DNA from: Armatimonadetes bacterium UBA1398
GTDB taxonomy: Bacteria > Armatimonadota > Zipacnadia > UBA1398
Direction: 5' to 3'
DNA length: 64,000 nucleotides
Assembly: GCA_002305165.1 (NCBI GenBank)
Contig: DBQI01000065.1
Coordinates: 16,794-80,793 of the forward strand
A program made the translations under genes and the position numbers. This document shows positions 4,744 to 62,854 of this stretch, one piece after another; position 1 is the stretch's first letter, and each line of letters opens with the position of its first letter. The notes below the pieces were generated by a model. The model searched no databases. It was given only the letters and a program-made list of their open reading frames with translations, and was not told where the DNA came from.

Positions 4744-4774
4744 TTGACAGGCGAGCCGAACGGCGTGTTATGTT
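4744..4774 (+). promoter_or_regulatory. candidate sigma70-like promoter (TTGACA, 18-19 nt spacer, TTATGT/TATGTT) upstream of FHA operon
   Basis: Perfect TTGACA at 4744..4749 and AT-rich hexamer about 18 nt downstream, in the 304-bp divergent intergenic region before the GTG at 4835. Confidence 0.3.
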
Positions 4775-4834: not shown

Positions 4835-6043
4835 GTGCGTCGTTCTCTTCCCAACCTGGTTCGTGTGTTCGGGATTGTCTGGTGCGGTCTCACTCTTCTC
4901 TGCCATTCCGCATCGGCTGCGCCCGAGCCCGAGAAGCAGGATGTCACCCTCAACGAGGTCATCGCCAGCCCCTCCCACTACCGGGACGCCGATATGTCGC
5001 TTGAGGGACTGGTGGGCGATGCACGGCTTGCCCGGGGTCCCGAAGGTCGCACGTGTTCCTTCGCCCTGGTCAGTCCTAACAGCAATATGGGCCTCGCCAT
5101 ACTAGGCGCTGACGCGCCGGAAACAGGCCTGTACGTGCGTGTGGAGGGTCCTCTGCGGCTCGATCCGCGGCTGAACACCCCGTACATCGAGTCACCCCGG
5201 GTAACTGTCCTCCACGAGCTGCCCCTGTGGCTGCGTCCCGCTGACCATCAGAGCCTTGCCGCCCTCGGCGCCATCCTGTGCGCCATGGCCGCATGCCTTC
5301 TCCTCGTCAGCATCCGCCGACCCTCCAGCGTGGCGCCGTCTCCAGAGCGCTTCAGTGCTCTGATCTCGACCGCCGTCTTGCCTCCGCGCGCTGAGACCCC
5401 GGCCCCGGCGACCGTCGCCGAGTACGTCGCGCCCGCCCCGGACACCTCGATCGGTGACGAGGGTTGCGAGCCGGGAGCATCTGACGACGATACGCCACTA
5501 ACGGGGGAGACCGTGTCCTTGGATCCGGAAGCTCTGGTGGCCGGGTCCGAGGGGCCGGCTCCATCCGGTCCTGCGGAGGGCGTGCCGGCCCGGGAAACCT
5601 CGACCGGTGACGAGAGTCCTGAGCCGACAGCATCGAGCGATGCGGCGCCCACGGCGGAGGCCGAGTCCGAAGAGCCCCCGACTGTGCCCGATGGGGACGC
5701 GTCCGTACCCATCGTCGGTATGGTACTGGAGGTCGTCGCGGGACCCGACCGGGGCAGGGTTTTCGAGGCGCGTGGCCCTAGAGTCACGATCGGCCGTTCG
5801 GAGGATCGCGACGTGCCCTTGACCGACGAGTTGGTCGCGCGCCATCAGGCGACCCTTACGCGCTCCAATGGGGTGGTGCTGCTCAGCTCTGAGGTTCCGG
5901 GCGCCGTAGTGTGTCTCAACTCCCGCCCGGTGCGCCAAGCGGAGATCGCGGCCCATGATGTCATTCGCATGGGATGCTCCGAGCTGCGCCTGATCGCCTC
6001 GCCATCAGCAGCGGAGCTAGGCCCTTCGGTACCCGCGCAATGA
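4835..6043 (+). CDS. membrane-anchored FHA domain protein (signal peptide, periplasmic domain, TM helix, acidic/Pro-rich linker, C-terminal FHA)
   Basis: C-terminal FHA signature RVTIGRSEDRDVPLTDELVARHQATL...NSRPV; internal hydrophobic helix LAALGAILCAMAACLLLVSI; stop overlaps next start (ATGA). Confidence 0.65.
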   Translation: MRRSLPNLVRVFGIVWCGLTLLCHSASAAPEPEKQDVTLNEVIASPSHYRDADMSLEGLVGDARLARGPEGRTCSFALVSPNSNMGLAILGADAPETGLYVRVEGPLRLDPRLNTPYIESPRVTVLHELPLWLRPADHQSLAALGAILCAMAACLLLVSIRRPSSVAPSPERFSALISTAVLPPRAETPAPATVAEYVAPAPDTSIGDEGCEPGASDDDTPLTGETVSLDPEALVAGSEGPAPSGPAEGVPARETSTGDESPEPTASSDAAPTAEAESEEPPTVPDGDASVPIVGMVLEVVAGPDRGRVFEARGPRVTIGRSEDRDVPLTDELVARHQATLTRSNGVVLLSSEVPGAVVCLNSRPVRQAEIAAHDVIRMGCSELRLIASPSAAELGPSVPAQ

Positions 6044-7275
6044 GCGATGACGTCCAGACCACTCCCGCCGAGGTCCCTGCCCTACCTGCCACACGCCCGG
6101 TGCGCGTTGGGTGCGCGGCGGCGCAGCCGGATGGGCTTGACCCCTGCCAAGCCGCCGTCGTCTGCGAGTGTCCCGCCGGAGGCGAGGTCCACTACGCCGC
6201 TGCGGCCTGCGTCATCGATGGCTCCCTCTCCCAGTCCAGAGGTGACATCGCGGCCTCCCTAGTTGCAGACCAGCTTGAGTCGGCACTCCAGTCTGGGCGA
6301 GCCCCCACCATTGGGGCGGGATTGGTGATGGCTCTGCACGATGCCGCAGAGGCCTTGAAGCGCCGCGCTAAGCTGCCTCACGACCCCGCGGACCTGAAGT
6401 GCAGTGCTGGTGTCGCGGTGCTGGATGACGGCAACTGGACCTTCGTTGAGGTCGGCGGCGCCCATGTGTTCCTGGAGCGAGGCCGGGCCGTCGGTCCGGT
6501 CTTCCGACAGGGACAGGCTGCCGATCCTCCTCTAGGCGATGAGGACTCCGCGCCCAGAGTCACGACGGCACGCGCTCTCCCGGGTGATCAGGCGCTGCTG
6601 CTGGGTGGCTACACCGCGGGCAGTCTCGACCTCGCCCGAGCTGCCCAGTCTCTCCGAGCTGCGCCCGATCTTGGGGAGGGCTGCAAGGCACTCGCCCGGG
6701 AGGCCCTCTCGACCCACCACACACCCCAGGCTCTGGCGTCCATCGTCCTGGATCGTCGGCCGCGTCGAGCACGATCTGTCGTGTTCCCCCTGCTATTCTC
6801 ACTCGCTTTCGTGGTGGCGGCCCTCGGGTTCGCCTTCCTTGCCTGGACGGGAGGACCGACGAGACCGATCATCCCGCCCGAGGCGCGAAGTGCGAACCTG
6901 CTGCCCATCGCTGAGGAACCCCAAGGCGCCGGCGTCGATGTCGGCGGGGCTCCCGGCCTGGTGGATATCGATCTCCCCGACGTCGAGGCCGTGCCGCGCG
7001 ATTCAGGCCGCGTCAAGGTGATCGGCGAGCCCGGACTCTGTTTCGAGGTCCTCGACCTGGCAACGGGCGAGTCCGTGTTGGAGGGCGAGATCCGCGAGGG
7101 ACAGGACTCCTACATCAGCCAGGGCATTCCCGCTCCAGGTCAATACTCTGTGACGGTATGGGAGTCGGCAGAGAAGAAGGAGGCCCGCATGGAGGGGCTC
7201 GAGTTCCATCTGGAACGGGACGCAATCAGGATTGTCGATTCCCGCAGAGGACACGAGCACGAGCCAGCGCGATAG
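6040..7275 (+). CDS. PP2C-like (possibly degenerate) membrane protein with extracytoplasmic C-terminal domain
   Basis: Start set at ATG 6040 overlapping the FHA stop. N-terminal region shows PP2C-like blocks (HYAAAACVIDGSLSQSRGD, AGVAVLDDGNWTFVEVGGAHVF, GDQALLLGGYTAG); TM helix VVFPLLFSLAFVVAALGFAFLAW. Confidence 0.5.
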   Translation: MSDDVQTTPAEVPALPATRPVRVGCAAAQPDGLDPCQAAVVCECPAGGEVHYAAAACVIDGSLSQSRGDIAASLVADQLESALQSGRAPTIGAGLVMALHDAAEALKRRAKLPHDPADLKCSAGVAVLDDGNWTFVEVGGAHVFLERGRAVGPVFRQGQAADPPLGDEDSAPRVTTARALPGDQALLLGGYTAGSLDLARAAQSLRAAPDLGEGCKALAREALSTHHTPQALASIVLDRRPRRARSVVFPLLFSLAFVVAALGFAFLAWTGGPTRPIIPPEARSANLLPIAEEPQGAGVDVGGAPGLVDIDLPDVEAVPRDSGRVKVIGEPGLCFEVLDLATGESVLEGEIREGQDSYISQGIPAPGQYSVTVWESAEKKEARMEGLEFHLERDAIRIVDSRRGHEHEPAR

Positions 7276-9297: not shown

Positions 9298-10397
9298 GGC
9301 GCATCCTCTTTGTCAGCCATGTGGGGGAGTTGGGGGGCGCGGAGCACTCCCTCGTTACGTTGGTCTCGTGCCTCGATCAGGGCCGCTACGACGCCCACGT
9401 TGCCCTGTCCACCATCGACTCCCCGTTGGGACGCGCGCTGTTAGAGCGGGGCGCTGAGACCCACGCCATCCCATCGCTGCGTCCGCTCCGCCGGCGCGAC
9501 CCGTTCATGCCGATCACCCTCATCCGAGGCCAGCGCGCGTTGTCCGCCCTGGCACGGAGGCTGAGGCCGGACGTCATTCACGCGAACAGCGACGTGTCGA
9601 TGGCGTACGCGGCCGGACTCTACACGGAATCAGGCTCGGGGCGAACCCCCTGGCGGATCGTCTGGCACCTTCGCGACATGCGAGGCGCGGGATACTGGGT
9701 CCGCCACCTTCGCGATCACTCTCACGCGCGCATCGCAGTGAGCCGAGCGGTGCTCGATCATCACGGCCTACACGCCTGCGAGCGGTCGCGAGTCATCTAT
9801 AACGGAGTCGACCTGTCACGCTTCCGACCGGGTCTATCGGGGGCGTCCATCCGACGCGAGCTGGCGATTGGCGCGGACCGTGTGCTGTGCCTCTGCGTGG
9901 CTCAGGCGGTCCCATGGAAGAACCTGGACACATTCGCCGGGCTCTCCGGTGAGGGGTACGAACGGCTGCTCATCGCCTATCCTCCCCCGGGAGGCAGGCC
10001 CATGGCCTGTCCCGCTTCTGGACCGGGGCTGCAAGTGGTCGGCTACCGCGACGATATGCCCGAGGTGTACGCGGCCGCGGACGTGCTCGTCCATCCGGCC
10101 ATCGGCGAGGCCTTCGGCCGCACGGTGGTCGAGGCCATGGCGTGCGGAGTGCCGGTGGTCGCCTACCGCCATGGAGGACCCGCGGAGACGATCGTGCATG
10201 GAGTGAGCGGCCTGCTCGTCGACCCGAAGGAACCGGAGGCCTTGGAGTGTGCCGTGGATCGTCTCGTGGCCGACGCTGACCTCCGGGGCCGCCTCGCTGT
10301 CGGTGCGGCCGAGCGGGCCCAGGCGTTTTCCTCCGAGAGTCACGCGGCCCAGGTGGAAGCGTTCTACGAGGATCTCATCGAGGGGGGAGCGGGGTGA
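9294..10397 (+). CDS. GT4 family glycosyltransferase (GT-B fold)
   Basis: C-terminal retaining-GT4 signature [25 protein letters not shown]; GTGA overlap with next gene. Confidence 0.8.
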
Positions 10398-20321: not shown

Positions 20322-20440
20322 GCGCCAGCGTGATCGACCCTCCTAGATGATGCGCTTCGGGTGTCGCGGCAGCCTTGCCCGCAGGCCCTGGGCCGTGGCA
20401 TCCCGAACCTGCCTGGTCCTGACACGGAAGGAGTCCTCCC

Positions 20441-22420
20441 ATGATTCTCCCCATGCGACAGATCCACCTCGATTTCCACACCTCCGAGAAGATCGCGGGG
20501 ATCGGCGCCGATTTCGACGCTGACCGCTTCGCGGACACCCTCAAGCGCGCCCACGTGAACTCCGTCACCCTCTTCTCCCGCTGCCACCACGGCTGGATCT
20601 ACCATGACACCAAGTTCACCGAGGCTCGACATCCGCACCTTGAGTGCGACCTGCTTCCCCTACAGATGGAGGCCTGCCGCGCTCGGGGCATCCAGACGCC
20701 CGTCTACATCACCGTCGGACTGGATGAGCGCGTCGCGCGGGAGCATCCTGAGTGGCGAGAACTCCACGCGGGCGGACTCACAGGCGCGGGGCCCCTCGAT
20801 GCCGGCTGGCGTCCCCTCTGCTTCAGCACGCCCTACCTCGACTTCGTGCTCGAGCAGACGCGGGAGGCGCTGGAGCGGTACCACCCCGAGGGCCTCTTCT
20901 TCGACATCATGCACCAGGGGCCGTGCTGCTGCGCCTGGTGTCTGGCAGGCATGGAGGCCGATGGCCTCGACCCCACCGACCCAGCGACGAGGGCTACCTT
21001 CGCCGCCGGCGTCCTGAGACGGGCGAAGGAGCGGCTCCACGGCGTCGTGCGCGAGGCGGGGCCCGATGTCCGCTGCTTCTTCAACGCCGGCCACATCGAT
21101 CCGGCCATCCGCGACTCCCTGGACCTCTACTCGCACCTCGAGATCGAGTCCCTCCCCACGGGGGGATGGGGCTACATGCACTTCCCGGTGACGGTGCGCT
21201 ACGCGCGGGGACTCAACCGTGAGTGTCTCGCCATGACCGGCAAGTTCCACGCGACCTGGGGCCACTTCAGCTCCTTCAAGAACCCCATTGCCCTGGAGTA
21301 TGAGGCCCTCGTCGGGCCCGCCAATGGCGCCGCCGTATCGATCGGCGACCAGCTCCATCCGCGTGGGGCCCTCTGTGAGGAGACCTACGATCGCATCGGG
21401 CGCGTGTACGCGATGGTGGAGGAGCGCGAGCCCTGGTATCTCGACGCCGAGCCGGTCACGGAGATCGCCCTCTTCAACACCGAAGCATGTGAGCCGATCC
21501 CGGGCATCGGCCTCGAGAAGGCGGTCACGGGGGCGACTCGCATCCTCATGGAGGGCCACCACCAGTTCGACATCGTCGATGGCGACATGGACTGGACCCC
21601 CTACTCGGTCCTCGTCCTCCCCGACAAGGTGGCGCTCGATGGCCCCCTTGCCGCGAAGGTTCGGGCCTTTGTCGACGCCGGCGGGCGTGTGCTGGCCACC
21701 CACCGGTCGGGGGAGGCCGCCGGCGGCGAGGCTCGCTTCGCCCTACCGGAGTGGCCGGTCGATGCCATTGGCGCTCAGCCCCTACATCCCGACTTCATCC
21801 TAGCCTTAGAGCCTCTCGCCAGGGGGCTGCCGGGGGTGCCCTTCGTCGCTTATGAACCGGGCCTCGAGGTTGCCGCCCGGCCTGGCTCCGAGGTGCTAGC
21901 GGAGGCCTACTCGCCCTACTTCGAGCGGACCTATGCGCACTTCTGCTCCCACGCCCACTCGCCAGTGGCGGGCAAGGCAGCGTACCCGTCCGCCGTGCGC
22001 AAGGGCGGCATCATCTACCTCTCTCACCCCCACTGCTCGGCTTACGTGACGCACGGCCAGACAGAAGACGCCCAGATCGTCCGCAATGCCCTCGATCTGC
22101 TGCTCCCCTCGCCCCTGGTGCGGGCTGGAGCGCCCTCGACGTGCCACATCACCATTACGCGCCAGCTCGAGCGCGGGCGCTGGATCGTTCACCTGCTCCA
22201 CTACATCCCCGAGCGGAGAGCAGAGGGCCGGGACCTCATACAGGACGTCATTCCCCTTCACGCCGTACCGCTCAGCATCCGGACTCCGGTCCCGCCATCG
22301 GCCTGCACCCTCGTGCCCTCGGGAGAAGCGGTGGAGTTCACTTGGCACGGCGGAAGGGTGGAGCTCACCCTATCGAAGATCCGTGGCAATCAGATGGTCG
22401 CGCTGGAGGGCGTCTGCTAA
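20441..22420 (+). CDS. GH42-like glycoside hydrolase (TIM barrel plus trimerisation/GATase1-like domain)
   Basis: 659 aa; GGAAGGAG RBS upstream; middle domain motif YSVLVLPDKVALDGPLAAKVRAFVDAGGRVLATH; no signal peptide. Confidence 0.55.
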   Translation: MILPMRQIHLDFHTSEKIAGIGADFDADRFADTLKRAHVNSVTLFSRCHHGWIYHDTKFTEARHPHLECDLLPLQMEACRARGIQTPVYITVGLDERVAREHPEWRELHAGGLTGAGPLDAGWRPLCFSTPYLDFVLEQTREALERYHPEGLFFDIMHQGPCCCAWCLAGMEADGLDPTDPATRATFAAGVLRRAKERLHGVVREAGPDVRCFFNAGHIDPAIRDSLDLYSHLEIESLPTGGWGYMHFPVTVRYARGLNRECLAMTGKFHATWGHFSSFKNPIALEYEALVGPANGAAVSIGDQLHPRGALCEETYDRIGRVYAMVEEREPWYLDAEPVTEIALFNTEACEPIPGIGLEKAVTGATRILMEGHHQFDIVDGDMDWTPYSVLVLPDKVALDGPLAAKVRAFVDAGGRVLATHRSGEAAGGEARFALPEWPVDAIGAQPLHPDFILALEPLARGLPGVPFVAYEPGLEVAARPGSEVLAEAYSPYFERTYAHFCSHAHSPVAGKAAYPSAVRKGGIIYLSHPHCSAYVTHGQTEDAQIVRNALDLLLPSPLVRAGAPSTCHITITRQLERGRWIVHLLHYIPERRAEGRDLIQDVIPLHAVPLSIRTPVPPSACTLVPSGEAVEFTWHGGRVELTLSKIRGNQMVALEGVC

Positions 22421-36419: not shown

Positions 36420-36495
36420 CCGGAGCGGCCCTCCTGACGGAGAGAGTATACTGGCCTCTTATCCCCGGGATGGGCGGCCGGAGAGGATACCCACT

Positions 36496-40031: not shown

Positions 40032-41606
<1,575 letters not shown>

Positions 41607-41721
41607 GCGCAACCCTCCAAATCCGATCGTCGATCGCTCTTACGTCCTAAAACGCAGTACCTATAAGAACGCAATCTGGACCTCAGCGCAAGTCCCTGCC
41701 GGCATCCTGTGCGCCCCCAAG

Positions 41722-41737
41722 GCGCTATGCTACAATC
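41722..41737 (+). promoter_or_regulatory. 16-nt motif GCTATGCTACAATCGC containing an extended -10-like TGcTACAAT
   Basis: AT-rich element in GC-rich intergenic DNA, 18 nt upstream of the first ATG of the MFS gene; near-identical copy at 53784..53799. Confidence 0.3.
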
Positions 41738-41754
41738 GCCCGACGCCCGATCTC

Positions 41755-43050
41755 ATGGGGGAGCGAAGCGCTGTGCCAACCGAGCCAGGTATGCCGGAAC
41801 CGCACCCACGGCGCGTGCATAGCGCGCGCCGGACGCGCCGCAACTTCCCCCTTATGTTTATCGATGCCCTGGGCTGGCCCCTCGGGTGGACGTTCATGTC
41901 ACCTGAGACGATACTCCCTGCCTTCGTCCTCCGCCTGACCGACTCGCCGATGGCCGTCTCCATGATACGCGTTGTCTACGCCGTCGGCATGTGGTTGCCG
42001 ATTCTCTACGCGCCGAACCTGATCCGGCGGGTGAAATGGCGTGGCAAGTATGTCGCCATCGTGGGGATGGTCGAGCGGGCGCCCATGCTGGTCATCGGCC
42101 TCACCGCGCCGCTTCTGGCCGCTTCGAACCCGTCGGCAATGCTCGTGGTCTTCTTCGCATGCTGGCTGGTGCGGTCCGTATCGGAGGGGTTGAACCTCTC
42201 CGCTTACGCATCCCTCCTGGATGAGAGCATCCCGGAGACCTACCGCGGCCGGCTCTGGGGCGTCTCCACAGGCATCAGCGCCGTTCTGGCGTTGCCCATC
42301 GGCTTCTGGACGGCGCACTACCTGGCGACGCGCGGCTTCCCCCAGGGCTACGCGGACCTGTTCATCATCGGCTTCGTCATCCTGGCCGTGACCATCATCC
42401 CGCTCTGGTGGGTGCGCGAGGTTCGCGGAGGGAGACATGTGCCGGACGGCGGACGGGTGGGACTCGGCTCTCTGCGCCTGCTCCGGACTGATGAGACCTT
42501 CCGGCGCTTCACCGCTATGTCCCTCGCCATCGCCTTCATCGACATGGCGGTGCCCTTCTACGCCGTCCACGCCCTCCGGACGTTCTCCCTGCCCGAATCC
42601 AGCATGGGACTGCTCGCGGGAGCGCAGGCGGCCGCCGCCTCGGTCGGATCCATCGCCCTCGGCATCGTCAGCGACCGGATCGGCTTCCGTGGGCCTCTGC
42701 GTGGGGCGCTCATCCTGGGGTTCATGGCTCCCCTGGCCGCCTTCCTTGCCCCCGCGCCCTGGGCCATGTACCCGACCTTCGCCCTCCTCGGAGCGGCGCT
42801 GACAACCATCGTGATGTGCCGCTACAACATGCTGCTGGAGATCTGTCCCCGCGGCCGAGTGCCCGAGTATTCCGGAGTCTTCTACACCGTTCTGCAGCCC
42901 GCGTTCGCCCTGGCGCCCTTTTTGGGTAGTCTGGTCGCGCAGTACGTGGGTCTGAGGGCCGTGTTCATCCCCTCCATGGCCGCGGCCCTCGTGGCCCTTG
43001 CCCTACTCCGCCATGTGCCCGAGCCTCGGAGGACAGCGCCGGCGCCCTGA
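41755..43050 (+). CDS. MFS-type transporter
   Basis: About 12 hydrophobic helices; start uncertain (ATG 41755, GTG 41773 with GGGGGAG upstream, or ATG 41791); track start 41563 rejected because it would overlap the divergent pckA start. Confidence 0.65.
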   Translation: MGERSAVPTEPGMPEPHPRRVHSARRTRRNFPLMFIDALGWPLGWTFMSPETILPAFVLRLTDSPMAVSMIRVVYAVGMWLPILYAPNLIRRVKWRGKYVAIVGMVERAPMLVIGLTAPLLAASNPSAMLVVFFACWLVRSVSEGLNLSAYASLLDESIPETYRGRLWGVSTGISAVLALPIGFWTAHYLATRGFPQGYADLFIIGFVILAVTIIPLWWVREVRGGRHVPDGGRVGLGSLRLLRTDETFRRFTAMSLAIAFIDMAVPFYAVHALRTFSLPESSMGLLAGAQAAAASVGSIALGIVSDRIGFRGPLRGALILGFMAPLAAFLAPAPWAMYPTFALLGAALTTIVMCRYNMLLEICPRGRVPEYSGVFYTVLQPAFALAPFLGSLVAQYVGLRAVFIPSMAAALVALALLRHVPEPRRTAPAP

Positions 43051-43078
43051 GGGCGACGAGAGGATCAAGGAGCGCAAC

Positions 43079-43879
43079 ATGCCCAAGTACGACGTTCTCG
43101 CCATAGACATCGACGGCACCCTGCTCAACACGAACCACGAGATCCCGCCGGCTCATCTCGAGGCCGTCCGCGAGGCAGACGCCGCAGGGGTGCGCATCGT
43201 CCTCGCCTCGGGACGCATGCTACCCTCGGTGACCGTTGTCGGGGAGCAGATGGGGATCCGGCCCGGGCCCTGCGTGGGCTACAACGGGGGCCGGGTCTGC
43301 TCCGCTGAGACGGGGGAGGTCCTGTTCCACGAGCCCGTCCCCGCCGACCTGGCCCAGGAGCTGGTGCGTCGCTTCACCGATCTGGGGATGCACATCAACT
43401 ACTACCTCGATGATGTGCTCTACGTGGATCACATCGAGCAGTGGGGCAATCTCTACTCATACCGGACCGGCTCGCAGCAGGTGCCCGTTGGGCCGCTCCG
43501 GCAGTTCGACGGGCGAACGCCCACCAAGATCCTCATCATCGACGACCCCGAGCGCATCAAGGGGATCTGCCCCGAGTTCCAGAGGGAGTTCGGGGATCGG
43601 CTCTATGTCACCATCACCACGCCCGAGTACCTCGAGTTCATGAACAAGGCCGTGGATAAGGCCACGGGCGTGGCGGAGGCGGTGGCCTCGCTAGGAGTGC
43701 CTCGGGAGTGGACCGCCGCCGTGGGCGACGCCCTGAACGACCAGCCCATGATCGAATGGGCGGGCCTGGGCTGCGCCATGGGCAACGCCGACCCGCCCGT
43801 GCTCGCCGCCGCCGACGTCGTCGCCCCCAGCAACGACGAGGACGGCCTCGCGTGGTTCATCAGGGAGTATGTGCTATAG
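43079..43879 (+). CDS. Cof-type HAD-IIB family hydrolase (sugar phosphatase-like)
   Basis: Start at ATG 43079 (AAGGAG 7 nt upstream); HAD motif I LAIDIDGTLL and motif IV AVGDALND. Confidence 0.75.
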   Translation: MPKYDVLAIDIDGTLLNTNHEIPPAHLEAVREADAAGVRIVLASGRMLPSVTVVGEQMGIRPGPCVGYNGGRVCSAETGEVLFHEPVPADLAQELVRRFTDLGMHINYYLDDVLYVDHIEQWGNLYSYRTGSQQVPVGPLRQFDGRTPTKILIIDDPERIKGICPEFQREFGDRLYVTITTPEYLEFMNKAVDKATGVAEAVASLGVPREWTAAVGDALNDQPMIEWAGLGCAMGNADPPVLAAADVVAPSNDEDGLAWFIREYVL

Positions 43880-48907: not shown

Positions 48908-49939
48908 ATGGATGCTTGGGAAGCAGGGGCGATTCGTTTGGCGATAGGCAGCCGCTCCAGGTCGTGGTTACGCGTTGGCTCACTGGTTGGGCTTGTCATC
49001 ACCGCACCGCTCCTGATCCTTGCGGCCATCCGACTCTACGGCTCCTACGCTGGTCAGAAGACCGTCGCACACCGCGAGGTATGCCTCGACAATCTGCGGG
49101 TCATCGGGGGAGCGCTTCGCGCTTACTCCCTGGATCACGATGACCGCCTTCCTCCCGCGGCGACCTGGGAGGATCTCCTCCTAGAGGACACGGGAGACCC
49201 CCGGGTGTTCCTCTGTCCCGCCGCGCCCGAGGGCGCGGAAACGGGGTACGCCTACTACGCCGCCCTCTCCCAAGGCTCCCTCGCCTCCCTGGCGACCCCG
49301 GCCGACGTCCCCATGGCGTACGACTCGCCGAAGGGGACGTGGAACGCCCGCGATAGCCGGCCGGAGTTCCCCTCGCCTCCCCGCCACGGGGACCGAAACC
49401 ATGCCGTAATGGCCGACGGGTCCGCACGGAGCCTCGCCCCCTTCGACGTCTGGGTGGAGGCGCGGTTCCAGGAGGACGGGCCGGGCGGGCCAGGCGACAC
49501 GAAGGCCCTGCCGGGGTTCTCCGGACCCAGCATCCTCTTCCAGACGGACGAGCCTGTCGCCTTCCGCACCGAGCATGGTATCGAGTGGTCCGCCGAGCGC
49601 CTGCCCACGGGGTACGCTTTCCGCGGTCCCGAGGGCTCTCGCGCGTCGACCACCCTGGTGATGGCTGACGCGGAGGCCGGGCTGCCCGCTCTCGCGCCCG
49701 CGGCGACGATCGTGCGCCAGTTCGAGGTGAACCTCGCGCCCGAACCCGGCGCTTTCCCTGCTACAGCCGAGGTCACCGAAGTGACGGAGTCGGGCCTGCG
49801 GAGCCTACGGGTGACGGTCCAGTCCGAGCCCCCGCTCAAGGCGCTCATCACCGTCCCCGAGGATGCGGGTGATGAGGCGCTGGCCGAGGCGTGCCTCCCG
49901 CTGACGGCCCTGCGCTGGATCGAGAAGATACCTCAGTAG
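48908..49939 (+). CDS. H-X9-DG domain (DUF1559-type) pseudopilin-like protein
   Basis: N-terminal hydrophobic helix then CLDNLRVIGGALRAYSLDHDDRLPP and the H-X9-DG motif HGDRNHAVMADGSARSL. Confidence 0.5.
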   Translation: MDAWEAGAIRLAIGSRSRSWLRVGSLVGLVITAPLLILAAIRLYGSYAGQKTVAHREVCLDNLRVIGGALRAYSLDHDDRLPPAATWEDLLLEDTGDPRVFLCPAAPEGAETGYAYYAALSQGSLASLATPADVPMAYDSPKGTWNARDSRPEFPSPPRHGDRNHAVMADGSARSLAPFDVWVEARFQEDGPGGPGDTKALPGFSGPSILFQTDEPVAFRTEHGIEWSAERLPTGYAFRGPEGSRASTTLVMADAEAGLPALAPAATIVRQFEVNLAPEPGAFPATAEVTEVTESGLRSLRVTVQSEPPLKALITVPEDAGDEALAEACLPLTALRWIEKIPQ

Positions 49940-52746: not shown

Positions 52747-53766
52747 CTAGGGGTCAGTATTGCCCGCCGAGGGCCGCCAGGCCTCCTCGGGAACGGGTCC
52801 GCGCGCCAGTGGCCCGTACTGGTAGGCCAGCATGAGGATCCCGGAGATGATCCCGACCCAGACCTTAGGCCATGCCGGGAGTGGCGCGGGGGTCACAAAG
52901 CCCTCGATGAGCGCCGCTACCACGAAGAGGAGCACGGTGCCGAGCATCACCGTCGCGGCCTCGGGCGCCGCCCGCTTGAGAGCTTCCCAGCGCGTGAACC
53001 GCCCAGGGGCGATGATCGCCCAGCCCAGCCGCAGGCCCGAGGCTCCCGCGAGAACGATCGCCCACAGCTCCACGACGCCGTGGGGCACGATGAGCGAATA
53101 GTACGGTAGGACATTCCCGTAGTGGTGCATCCCTCCGCTCAGTCCGCCCACCATCAGGCCGTTCTGGAGCAGGGCGTAGAGGGTATAGACCCCCGCCAGG
53201 ACGCCCCCCGCGAAGGCGGTGAAGCCCACCTTGATGTTGTTCTGCATGATGAATGCCGATAGCGGAGCCATGATCCCCGTCGGCAGTTGGTTGCCCTGAT
53301 AGTCGGGCATACCGCCCGGGCCGATGGCGCCGGCGAACTGCGCCGGAACGAATAGACGCGCCAGCGTAGGGTCGCTGTAGCTCAGGATGAACGCGAACAG
53401 CCCGCTGCCGAAGAAGACGAGGGAGGCGACGAGGACGTACGGCCAGAGCTTGCGCACCGTGCGCGGATACGTGTCAGTGAGGAAGGCGCCCACTCGACGC
53501 CACTGCACGCCGGTGGGGACGCGGTAGACCGCGTTGTGAGAGCGGACCACGAGGCCATTCAGGTAGGCGACGATATCCGGGTCGGACGCGCCGCCCTGAG
53601 CCTGGGCGAGGTGGCTGGACACCCGTCGGTGCAGCCGGCTGAGTTCCGCTAACTCCGCGCCCGACAGGGCTTTCAGGCCGCCCTGGTCAACCTTATCCAG
53701 GAGCGCGGCCAAGCGGTGCCAGTCTCGCTGTCGTCGATCAACCCTGGAATTGAAGGGGGTCGCCAC
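52747..53766 (-). CDS. SpoIIM/DUF95-family integral membrane protein
   Basis: 339 aa; cytoplasmic N-terminal segment then multiple hydrophobic helices. Confidence 0.5.
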   Translation of the reverse strand: MATPFNSRVDRRQRDWHRLAALLDKVDQGGLKALSGAELAELSRLHRRVSSHLAQAQGGASDPDIVAYLNGLVVRSHNAVYRVPTGVQWRRVGAFLTDTYPRTVRKLWPYVLVASLVFFGSGLFAFILSYSDPTLARLFVPAQFAGAIGPGGMPDYQGNQLPTGIMAPLSAFIMQNNIKVGFTAFAGGVLAGVYTLYALLQNGLMVGGLSGGMHHYGNVLPYYSLIVPHGVVELWAIVLAGASGLRLGWAIIAPGRFTRWEALKRAAPEAATVMLGTVLLFVVAALIEGFVTPAPLPAWPKVWVGIISGILMLAYQYGPLARGPVPEEAWRPSAGNTDP

Positions 53767-53783
53767 TCGACACCACCTACGCG

Positions 53784-53799
53784 GCTATGCTACATTCGC
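53784..53799 (+). promoter_or_regulatory. second copy of the 16-nt motif (GCTATGCTACATTCGC)
   Basis: 15/16 identical to 41722..41737; in a 65-bp divergent intergenic region, 32 nt upstream of ATG 53832 (RBS AGAGGTGA). Confidence 0.3.
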
Positions 53800-53831
53800 A
53801 ATGCACGGTTCGACCCTGCAAGAGGTGACCC

Positions 53832-54074
53832 ATGCCCGATCAGACCAGCCTAACCCTGCCCGAGCCATCGGGTTTCCACGAGGTGGCTAAGACGGTCCTC
53901 AAGGCCGTTGGTGACATCTCCTCCGGTGTGAGCCGCGTCGCCTCCGATACCATCGTCGCCGCGGTCAAGGAAGCCTACATGACCGGCTACCGCGATGGCT
54001 ACCGGGACGCTCTGCGGCGAGCCGGCTCCGCCCTGGATGGCGTCCCCGCGCAGGAGACGCCCTCCGAGTCCTAG
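53832..54074 (+). CDS. small hypothetical protein (80 aa)
   Basis: Clean composition, AGAGGTGA RBS, preceded by the conserved 16-nt motif. Confidence 0.4.
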   Translation: MPDQTSLTLPEPSGFHEVAKTVLKAVGDISSGVSRVASDTIVAAVKEAYMTGYRDGYRDALRRAGSALDGVPAQETPSES

Positions 54075-55451
54075 TCACCGCCCCGGGCGGTACGTGTCCG
54101 CGCCCTTGCCCGTATCTGGCCGCTCGTCGGCGGCCCTTGGACCGAGCCGCTCCTGCACCTTGCGGTCGAAGTACTCGATCAGCAGGTGCTTGGCGTGGGT
54201 CACGAACTCATCGTCCGGGTACTCCGCCACCAAGGTCACCAGCAGATCCGCCGCGCGCTGGTAGCCCGCCTGCTCGGTGACCTCGTAGCCTCCCGCCGGC
54301 TTACGCACGATGGACGTGCCCAAGTAGAGCGAGCCCGCGTAGAAGAGCACTTCGGGACGGTGCCGCCCGTCCAGATCCTCCTCCAGGTATCGCTCGAAGG
54401 CCCGACGCGCCGTCTCCGCCTCTCCTGCGAAGAGGGCCGCGATGCCAGCCCGAGCGACCGCTTCCTCGCGATCGCGGCCACGGAGCGGCCCCTCGCTCGC
54501 GCGCGCGTAGAGGGCGGCGGCGCGCGGCCAGTTCTCTCCCTGGTAGAAGGCCTTGGCGGCCGCCAGAGCCTCCGCCGTGTCGGCCGGTTCCGCCGCCACA
54601 GCGCCCCGCAGCGCGTCCAGCGTGGGGATGAGCAGCGGCGACGTGCCCAGGTTGTAGAGGATGGCCAGGAACTCGCCGTCGCGCTCGAGGACCACCGGGT
54701 CATACTCCGTGGCAGGTCCGAACCGGATCGCCTCGGCCTCCGCGCGAGTCGGGTTCCGTGCCGTGCAGCCATCGAAGACCTGAGCCAGTACTGCGGCTGA
54801 GTCGTTCAGTTCGCCCGTCGCTCGCAGGGCGAAGGCGTAGAGATACCACACGTGGGGCGCCTCGATGCCTTGGCGGACCAGCGGCGCGAGGGCCTCCGCC
54901 GCTCGGTCGTAACGGCCCACGTCGTAGAACAGGGTGCCGAGACGCTCGCGCTGGGCGTCGTTGAGATCGGTGCGGGCACGGAGGCTCTTGATCTCGTGGG
55001 CCTGGGCCGTTACCAGCGCGTACACCGCCGGCTCGAAGCACGCGCCCAAGGTAGCCAGGACCGTTTCGTCCGTGTCCACCCACGCGAAGGTGGGGTAGAC
55101 CGCCTTGAGCCCGAGCCGGTTGAACACGGAGAGGTCGTCCCGGACGCTCACTCCGACGCACACCATCTGCTCGAAGGTCTCCAGAACCACGGGGTTCGTG
55201 AACATCGTCGCCTCGAGGCGGTCGCTCAGGGGGGAGCGCTCGGTCCGGTACTGGACATCCTCCACGCGCTGGGCGCCCGAGACCTGGGACTCGTATTCCT
55301 TGAAGAGGTAGACGAGGGTGATCTTGCCCTGCTCCTTGGCGAGGCCGAGCGCCGAGTCCAGGTCACCAGCCACGAAGACGGGCGGCAAGGCCGAAGCGCC
55401 GCTCACCCCCAGCGCCAGAATCAGGCAAGCAAGTGCCAAGCTGCGAGCCAT
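54075..55451 (-). CDS. secreted helical-repeat (TPR-like) protein
   Basis: Start at internal ATG giving signal peptide MARSLALACLILALGVSGASA; Ala/Leu/Arg-rich helical repeats. Confidence 0.45.
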   Translation of the reverse strand: MARSLALACLILALGVSGASALPPVFVAGDLDSALGLAKEQGKITLVYLFKEYESQVSGAQRVEDVQYRTERSPLSDRLEATMFTNPVVLETFEQMVCVGVSVRDDLSVFNRLGLKAVYPTFAWVDTDETVLATLGACFEPAVYALVTAQAHEIKSLRARTDLNDAQRERLGTLFYDVGRYDRAAEALAPLVRQGIEAPHVWYLYAFALRATGELNDSAAVLAQVFDGCTARNPTRAEAEAIRFGPATEYDPVVLERDGEFLAILYNLGTSPLLIPTLDALRGAVAAEPADTAEALAAAKAFYQGENWPRAAALYARASEGPLRGRDREEAVARAGIAALFAGEAETARRAFERYLEEDLDGRHRPEVLFYAGSLYLGTSIVRKPAGGYEVTEQAGYQRAADLLVTLVAEYPDDEFVTHAKHLLIEYFDRKVQERLGPRAADERPDTGKGADTYRPGR

Positions 55452-56602: not shown

Positions 56603-56653
56603 ACCAGCGGCCTCCCTTCGGGCTGCCCGCGCGGGGCTGCAGTGTGCTCTCAC

Positions 56654-62749: not shown

Positions 62750-62854
62750 GGTGGCACAACCCCTTTCCTCATCTTACGACACGCGGCGAGACGGGATGCC
62801 GCGGCCCGGCAACGCTTGCGCAGCTTTCGGGCCGGGCGCCTCTCCTTAGGCCGC

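Follow-up and report, generated by a model that had tools for sequence, protein, structure and literature searches.

Two near-identical 16-nt sequences, located in separate divergent intergenic regions of a 64-kb stretch of Armatimonadetes DNA (hereafter the window, i.e., the whole 64,000 nucleotides that were analysed; 68% GC), are most likely the cores of two housekeeping promoters of the sigma70/sigmaA extended -10 type. Copy 1, GCTATGCTACAATCGC, occupies positions 41724..41739 and copy 2, GCTATGCTACATTCGC, positions 53784..53799, both on the plus strand. Each contains a TATGC-TACAWT core, that is, TRTGn followed by a TAnnnT hexamer, and is oriented toward the gene downstream; every sequence-level feature of a sigma70/sigmaA extended -10 promoter was found at both sites. 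The elements and genes concerned are listed below.

40032..41606, minus strand: pckA, ATP-dependent PEP carboxykinase (PEPCK_ATP), divergent from the MFS gene, start ATG 41606
41726..41730, plus strand: TATGC, the TRTGn extended -10 element or '-16 region' of the putative MFS promoter, with T-15 G-14 at 41728-41729
41731..41736, plus strand: TACAAT, predicted -10 hexamer of the MFS-HAD operon promoter, TA.AAT being invariant in 7 orthologues
41773..43050, plus strand: MFS transporter gene (MFS_1), GTG start, Shine-Dalgarno sequence GGGGGAG 9 nt upstream
43013..43879, plus strand: HAD-family hydrolase gene, downstream of the MFS gene in the same operon
52747..53766, minus strand: SpoIIM-like membrane protein gene (Pfam SpoIIM), start GTG 53766
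53786..53790, plus strand: TATGC, the TRTGn extended -10 element of the putative 80-aa ORF promoter, T.TG being present in 6/6 orthologue sequences
53791..53796, plus strand: TACATT, predicted -10 hexamer of the 80-aa ORF promoter
53832..54074, plus strand: 80-aa ORF, conserved in Armatimonadia, Shine-Dalgarno sequence AGAGGTG, start ATG 53832

A preliminary description of this DNA had drawn attention to the 15/16 identity of the two intergenic sequences, which is confirmed on the plus strand, and had named as their neighbours pckA, a gene for an MFS transporter, a SpoIIM-like gene and an 80-aa ORF; these are indeed PEPCK_ATP, MFS_1, SpoIIM and an ORF for which no family was found. Its coordinates are right for copy 2 and 2 nt off for copy 1, which had been placed at 41722..41737. 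The 16-mers end 33 nt (copy 1, to the MFS start GTG 41773) and 32 nt (copy 2, to the ATG at 53832) before the start codons, and the hexamers 36 and 35 nt before them. Compared with TATAAT, TACAAT matches at 5/6 positions and TACATT at 4/6, and the TG is located exactly one base 5′ of the hexamer in both copies as well as in 13/13 orthologous sequences. Within the window, the nonamer TGCTACAWT occurs at these two sites only. The earlier reading of TACAAT/TACATT as -10-like hexamers with an upstream TG in promoter position is therefore backed by position, orientation and phylogenetic footprinting.

The likeness of the two sequences had also been regarded as unlikely to arise by chance. Genes were called with a simple codon-usage model, all intergenic segments were compared pairwise, and shuffled sequences served as the control. 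Taken generally, the statement does not stand, since an intergenic 15/16 pair of any kind is not rare (about 1.3 are expected per window from shuffles). It does stand for AT-rich pairs: for 16-mers with at least 8/16 A/T, shuffles give 0.027 pairs (P ~0.013), a value that is optimistic and to be read as a lower bound, as AT islands are destroyed by shuffling. The match of the two 16-mers exceeds the expectation for random sequence, modestly. Promoters of one type at both sites would account for this excess, and closeness to a common extended -10 consensus for the likeness of the 16-mers.

A longer repeat or mobile element was considered and rejected, the 60-nt flanks being at background similarity (49/136 aligned positions matching, the motif included). 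Rfam and tRNA scans of the window returned no matches, so no RNA element accounts for the 16-mer. A second intergenic 15/16 pair, which is GC-rich, was also observed in the window, namely GGGCCGTGGCATCCCG at 20390..20405 (plus strand) and GGGCCGCGGCATCCCG at 62792..62807 (plus strand, reverse-complement match). Both members are sense-oriented, about 35-70 nt 5′ of gene starts at 20441 (plus strand) and 62749 (minus strand), and by eye their spacing is not that of sigma54 GG-N10-GC.

The evidence that carries the promoter assignment comes from orthologous loci. NCBI lists the homologues of both proteins, MFS and 80-aa, as 'Armatimonadia bacterium', their genome records are Armatimonadia/Armatimonadota MAGs, and the 80-aa protein is found unchanged on many anaerobic-digester contigs. 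In the closer relatives, synteny is kept at both loci (pckA divergent from MFS-HAD; TAL-SpoIIM divergent from the 80-aa ORF, with TPR converging on the latter). The footprint set comprised 13 sequences in register, the window included: seven MFS promoter sequences, with relatives at 83% (L011), 76% (L012), 59% (L023), 56% (L013) and 50% (L021 and L106) protein identity, and six 80-aa ORF promoter sequences, with relatives at 81% (L016 and L019) and 73% (L017 and L104) and a strain at 96% (L026). Two further MFS-locus relatives, L107 (49%) and L022 (43%), were kept outside the seven-sequence table. Contigs of the same species (L001-L010, L024-L027) were set aside as a footprint because their motif region is identical or nearly so and uninformative. 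A profile search of genome contigs with the MFS alignment gave four loci, the window's species not among them, and a metagenome scan with the SpoIIM-like alignment was discarded, as it returned mostly homologues at 32-42% identity from other lineages with unrelated TATAAT promoters. The sequences are given below, the 16-mer being divided into upstream flank, TGn, hexamer and downstream flank (lower case).

MFS promoter, window: GCTA TGC TACAAT cgc
MFS promoter, L011: GGTG TGC TACAAT cgc
MFS promoter, L012: CCTA TGC TACAAT ccc
MFS promoter, L013: CGTC TGC TAGAAT gcc
MFS promoter, L021: GGAG TGC TACAAT tgc
MFS promoter, L023: GGCG TGC TACAAT gcg
MFS promoter, L106: CCAG TGC TACAAT gcc
80-aa promoter, window: GCTA TGC TACATT cgc
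80-aa promoter, L016: CCTA TGT TAGATT cgc
80-aa promoter, L019: CCTG TGC TACATT cgc
80-aa promoter, L017: CGTA TGC TAAACT cat
80-aa promoter, L104: CGTG TGG TAAGTA cgc

Four positions alone, T-15, G-14, T-12 and A-11, do not vary in any of the 13 sequences, and T-7 is kept in 12/13. In the MFS family, TGCTA.AAT is invariant in all seven sequences, down to 50% protein identity, and in the relatives at 50-59% no other part of the intergenic DNA can be aligned. The element is absent from the two distant MFS orthologues, L022 and L107. The distance from the end of the hexamer to the start codon is 31-42 nt in all MFS orthologues and, for the 80-aa ORF, 34-45 nt in the window, L016, L017 and L019, which implies a leader of about 25-38 nt with room for a Shine-Dalgarno sequence. 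These data bear directly on pure coincidence between two functionless AT-containing 16-mers: some 1.3 intergenic pairs of this identity are expected per window anyway and another pair does exist, but the core recurs at the same start-codon distance in up to seven species, in intergenic DNA that is otherwise unalignable, and the probability of TGCTA[CG]AAT occurring by chance within 150 nt is estimated at ~2e-4 per species. Coincidence of this kind is thus extremely improbable.

Outside the sigma contacts, the sequences differ among orthologues at the GC of the left end, A-16, C-13, the C at hexamer position 3 and the CGC discriminator. Upstream flanks in the MFS family read GCTA, GGTG, CCTA, CGTC, GGAG, GGCG and CCAG, and downstream flanks across the set CGC, CCC, GCC, TGC, GCG and CAT. 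In the sister MAG GCA_014730065.1 (L012 and L016), the MFS and 80-aa promoters are alike at 12/16 positions, and in the pair L013/L017 (contigs from the same studies, which may or may not belong to one genome) at 10/16. A lineage-specific promoter class, as had been proposed, is not borne out by this pattern, the conserved bases being the universal sigma70/sigmaA TGn and TAnnnT with no new consensus. Neither the CGC discriminator nor the GC upstream flank recurs at other promoter candidates in the window, and GC../..CGC is accordingly no general preference of the lineage. One of these candidates lies at 4744..4774 on the plus strand (TTGACA, a 19-nt spacer and TG-T-TATGTT), upstream of an ORF starting at 4835 or 4865; other candidate hexamers are TATAAT at 49937 and near 56650, and TATACT at 36441.

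The same positions bear on the proposed regulator binding site. In this reading, the full 16-mer would be a transcription-factor operator over the -10 element, through which the MFS-HAD operon and the 80-aa ORF would be controlled jointly in this species. The 15/16 identity does reach past the sigma contacts, with the P value given above for AT-rich 16-mers; and if both sites are taken as extended -10 promoters, the probability that the roughly 7-8 unconstrained positions still agree is estimated from base composition at ~1e-3 per pair, a figure for a match that was picked after the fact from a large scan. In addition, the 16-mer is unchanged in the 96%-identical strain L026, which carries five substitutions elsewhere in the surrounding 110 nt, a difference that is not significant. 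However, the flanks are conserved in no orthologue, the likeness falls to the 12/16 and 10/16 noted in the relatives, and there is no convincing dyad symmetry (half-site matches of 5/8 and 4/8, by eye). No third copy is present in the 64-kb window with up to three mismatches allowed, no regulator gene adjoins either site (a nearby ROK protein is kinase-sized), and no functional link between the MFS-HAD and 80-aa genes is evident. With neither symmetry nor whole-site conservation, two properties that define an operator, this explanation is very unlikely. We conclude that the additional identical flank bases probably have no separately conserved function and that their identity is coincidental; some unrecognised constraint shared within this species, beyond the sigma contacts, might conceivably contribute.

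Recognition by an alternative sigma factor (ECF, sigma54 or sporulation-type) is likewise highly improbable. The sigma repertoire of the lineage is uncharacterised and a sigma54 gene is found on a scaffold of the species (L010), but the conserved TG-TA...T is the signature of housekeeping group 1/2 sigma factors, and inspection revealed neither GG-N10-GC (sigma54) nor a GAAC/CGTC-type ECF motif.

The roles of A-11 and T-7 in sigma70 promoters are established, and in Escherichia coli the TG is read by residues H455/E458 of sigma region 3.0. TGn is contacted by region 3 of sigma70 and can substitute for a poor -35 element, and T-12 is recognised as duplex DNA, A-11 and T-7 after melting (PMC2613000). 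By analogy, T-15/G-14 of the two window promoters would be recognised in duplex form by sigma region 3.0; T-12 would be read by sigma region 2, which would also capture A-11 and T-7 once the DNA melts. It is from the observed sequence, position, orientation and conservation pattern that we infer the sigma factor, promoter activity and start sites: transcription would begin about 7 nt past the hexamer, near 41743-41745 for the MFS promoter and 53802-53805 for the 80-aa promoter, and the MFS-HAD operon and the 80-aa ORF would each receive a leader of about 30 nt with its Shine-Dalgarno sequence inside.

With regard to the -35 region, the two promoters appear to differ. At the MFS promoter, a consensus scan found no -35/-10 pair and the orthologue table has no conserved block at -35, which fits a TGn/-10 promoter that needs no -35; the MFS promoter would rely on its TGn. 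The start of the MFS gene at GTG 41773 is backed by an aligned V/M-PTEP N-terminus and a GGAGG-type Shine-Dalgarno sequence in the relatives, and the MFS and HAD genes also stay together in L011, L012 and L013. At the 80-aa locus, the promoter may additionally use the following element.

53767..53772, plus strand: TCGACA, candidate -35 element with an 18-nt spacer, its conservation confounded by the ribosome-binding region of the SpoIIM-like gene

The consensus scan reports 53767..53796 as a full sigma70-type site (TCGACA-18-TACATT, TG present) with 0.0 expected, and CACTCGACACC, in the -35 region of this promoter, is nearly invariant among orthologues. As a clean -35 element, CACTCGACACC was nevertheless downgraded, for the block, which is GGTGGTGTCGAGTG as its reverse complement, consists of the start codon and the G-rich ribosome-binding region of the divergent SpoIIM-like gene. 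Gene callers differ on the length of this gene (339 vs 321 aa). The conserved N-terminal SRVDRRQRDW of the protein precedes the shorter start option, so the gene starts at GTG 53766 and its ribosome-binding site coincides in part with the -35 region of the 80-aa promoter. Because of this overlap with the start and ribosome-binding site of the divergent gene, the -35-like block is not independent support for the 80-aa promoter, and TCGACA is considered a possible -35 element.

Some further observations concern the surroundings of the 80-aa ORF. Its homologues were found solely on uncultured, Armatimonadia-named contigs. A convergent TPR gene (54075..55451) abuts it, with stop codons at 54074/54075, and this stop-to-stop pairing is kept in L016, L017 and L104. 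In L010 (GCA_900198705.1, scaffold FZPS01000148.1), a run of N at 9849..9909 lies directly 5′ of the 80-aa ORF promoter, and the DNA beyond this gap is unrelated and carries genes for phage capsid and glucosaminidase; as L010, 2.4 Mb in length, is a gap-joined scaffold, it gives no evidence for mobility of the 80-aa/TPR pair.

It has been reported that divergent transcription from overlapping symmetric -10 elements is common in bacteria, with a preferred spacing of 18 bp between the start sites and spacings of 29, 23, 12, 10 and 7 bp enriched too (bioRxiv 10.1101/2020.01.31.928960). Both 16-mers are located between divergent genes, and ATGCTACAWT (A.nnTAnnnT) might be read as a back-to-back promoter core that also drives the divergent gene, i.e., the SpoIIM-like gene and possibly pckA. 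RNA polymerase might bind such a core in either direction, and the core would supplement the main promoter explanation, not replace it. At the 80-aa locus, the element in question would be the following.

53787..53792, minus strand: TAGCAT, hypothetical back-to-back -10 element, sharing TA with the plus-strand hexamer

TAGCAT is the sole TAnnnT in the 130 nt 5′ of the called, shorter SpoIIM-like start, and these 130 nt include the 65-nt intergenic region. It stands 20 nt before GTG 53766, the implied leader of the SpoIIM-like transcript (about 13 nt) would begin at the Shine-Dalgarno sequence, and the implied separation of the start sites, about 23 bp, is among the enriched spacings (bioRxiv 10.1101/2020.01.31.928960). 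Conservation argues against this reading: the minus-strand T-7, which corresponds to position 4 of the 16-mer, is kept in 2/7 MFS-locus sequences and in 4/6 sequences of the 80-aa locus (or 3/5 if L026, a near-identical strain, is left out), no better than the R of TRTG alone predicts. Moreover, the minus-strand hexamer has neither TGn nor a -35 element, and pckA has a better promoter candidate of its own. A back-to-back core is on balance unlikely. If it exists, it is most plausible for the SpoIIM-like/80-aa ORF pair, since the intergenic region there spans only 65 nt. The broader proposition, that one RNA-polymerase site of about 10 bp serves both divergent genes and that TGn-dependent cores without a -35 element are possibly the main promoter architecture of Armatimonadota, is quite unlikely.

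The candidate of pckA is the block CCTATAAGAACGCAATC at 41661..41680 in the pckA-MFS intergenic region, which is conserved in L011 and L012, reads TTGCGTTCTTATAGG on the minus strand and has the counterpart TGTTATAGC in L012. This block is probably pckA's own promoter, separate from the 16-mer. For many distant SpoIIM-like homologues (L031, L034, L036-L038, L074, L078, L091, L093 and others), a consensus TATAAT was seen 2-3 nt from the start codon (CAT) of a conserved divergent gene, so that closely packed divergent pairs recur at SpoIIM-like genes of other lineages.

As for the use of the extended -10 element in the lineage, about 140 kb of Armatimonadia DNA contain 14 TGnTAnnnT matches in 13.9 kb of intergenic sequence vs 25 in 126 kb of genic sequence, a density about five times higher in intergenic DNA; TRTGnTAnnnT was counted 7 times in intergenic and once in genic sequence. 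In about 190 kb, TGnTAnAAT was found at the MFS promoter positions only. Most of the intergenic TGnTAnnnT matches are orthologous copies of the two promoters; enrichment ahead of genes reaches significance through these copies alone, and with orthologues collapsed about six independent upstream sites are left vs about four expected from shuffles. The data do not show that the extended -10 promoter is the dominant architecture in this lineage. A separate observation from one of the relatives concerns L016, where TGCTAAGAT at 6530..6548 lies 7 nt before an in-frame ATG of an mnmE/trmE gene; a leaderless transcript is possible there, and the called start at 6435 is probably too far upstream.

In short, the analysis yields two well-supported promoter calls and two corrected gene starts (MFS at GTG 41773 and SpoIIM-like at GTG 53766) from a lineage of uncultured Armatimonadia that is frequent in anaerobic digesters. 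Most likely they add two examples of a thoroughly familiar element from a phylum that has received little study, and the finding is an ordinary one. By this result, the universal rules for extended -10 promoters (TGn and TAnnnT) seem to hold in Armatimonadia, which would be of help for the annotation of MAGs and the choice of parts for heterologous expression. It also illustrates that a striking 15/16 match between promoters can consist of consensus plus coincidence, from which a footprint separates the 9-11 functional bases. A search of the literature turned up no relevant work on promoters in Armatimonadetes.

Several known systems may be compared with the two sites. In Gram-positive bacteria, TGn is extended to TRTG from -17 to -14 (PMC2613000), and this '-16 region' was described in Bacillus subtilis and others by Helmann 1995 and by Voskuil and Chambliss, as summarised in PMC2613000; for Mycobacterium tuberculosis promoters, PMC6212719 gives T-17G-16T-15G-14. 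Both window copies have TATG, and the 80-aa family has TATG or TGTG in 6/6 sequences, whereas the MFS family keeps T-17 in 4/7 and R-16 in 6/7, so that the -17/-16 extension does not appear to be uniformly required. With the bidirectional promoters of Warman et al. (bioRxiv 10.1101/2020.01.31.928960), the sites share A.nnTAnnnT, with -10-like hexamers on both strands, and the location between divergent genes; they differ in that the start-site separation, itself implied from sequence, is not the dominant 18-bp geometry and that the minus-strand hexamer is poorly conserved.

Close counterparts are extended -10 promoters such as E. coli galP1, lambda Pre* and cysG (PMC2613000), in which TG stands one base 5′ of a near-consensus hexamer, as it does here. 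Unlike these E. coli and lambda cases, the candidate promoters described here are known from sequence, and their host is an uncultured member of Armatimonadia with 68% GC. The MFS family also departs from the TGn/-10 class in the unusual stability of C-13 and of the C at hexamer position 3. On the other hand, the MFS promoter resembles the classical TGn/-10 class in having no recognisable -35 element (PMC2613000), and conservation at the two loci is confined to T-15, G-14, T-12, A-11 and T-7, as expected for that class.
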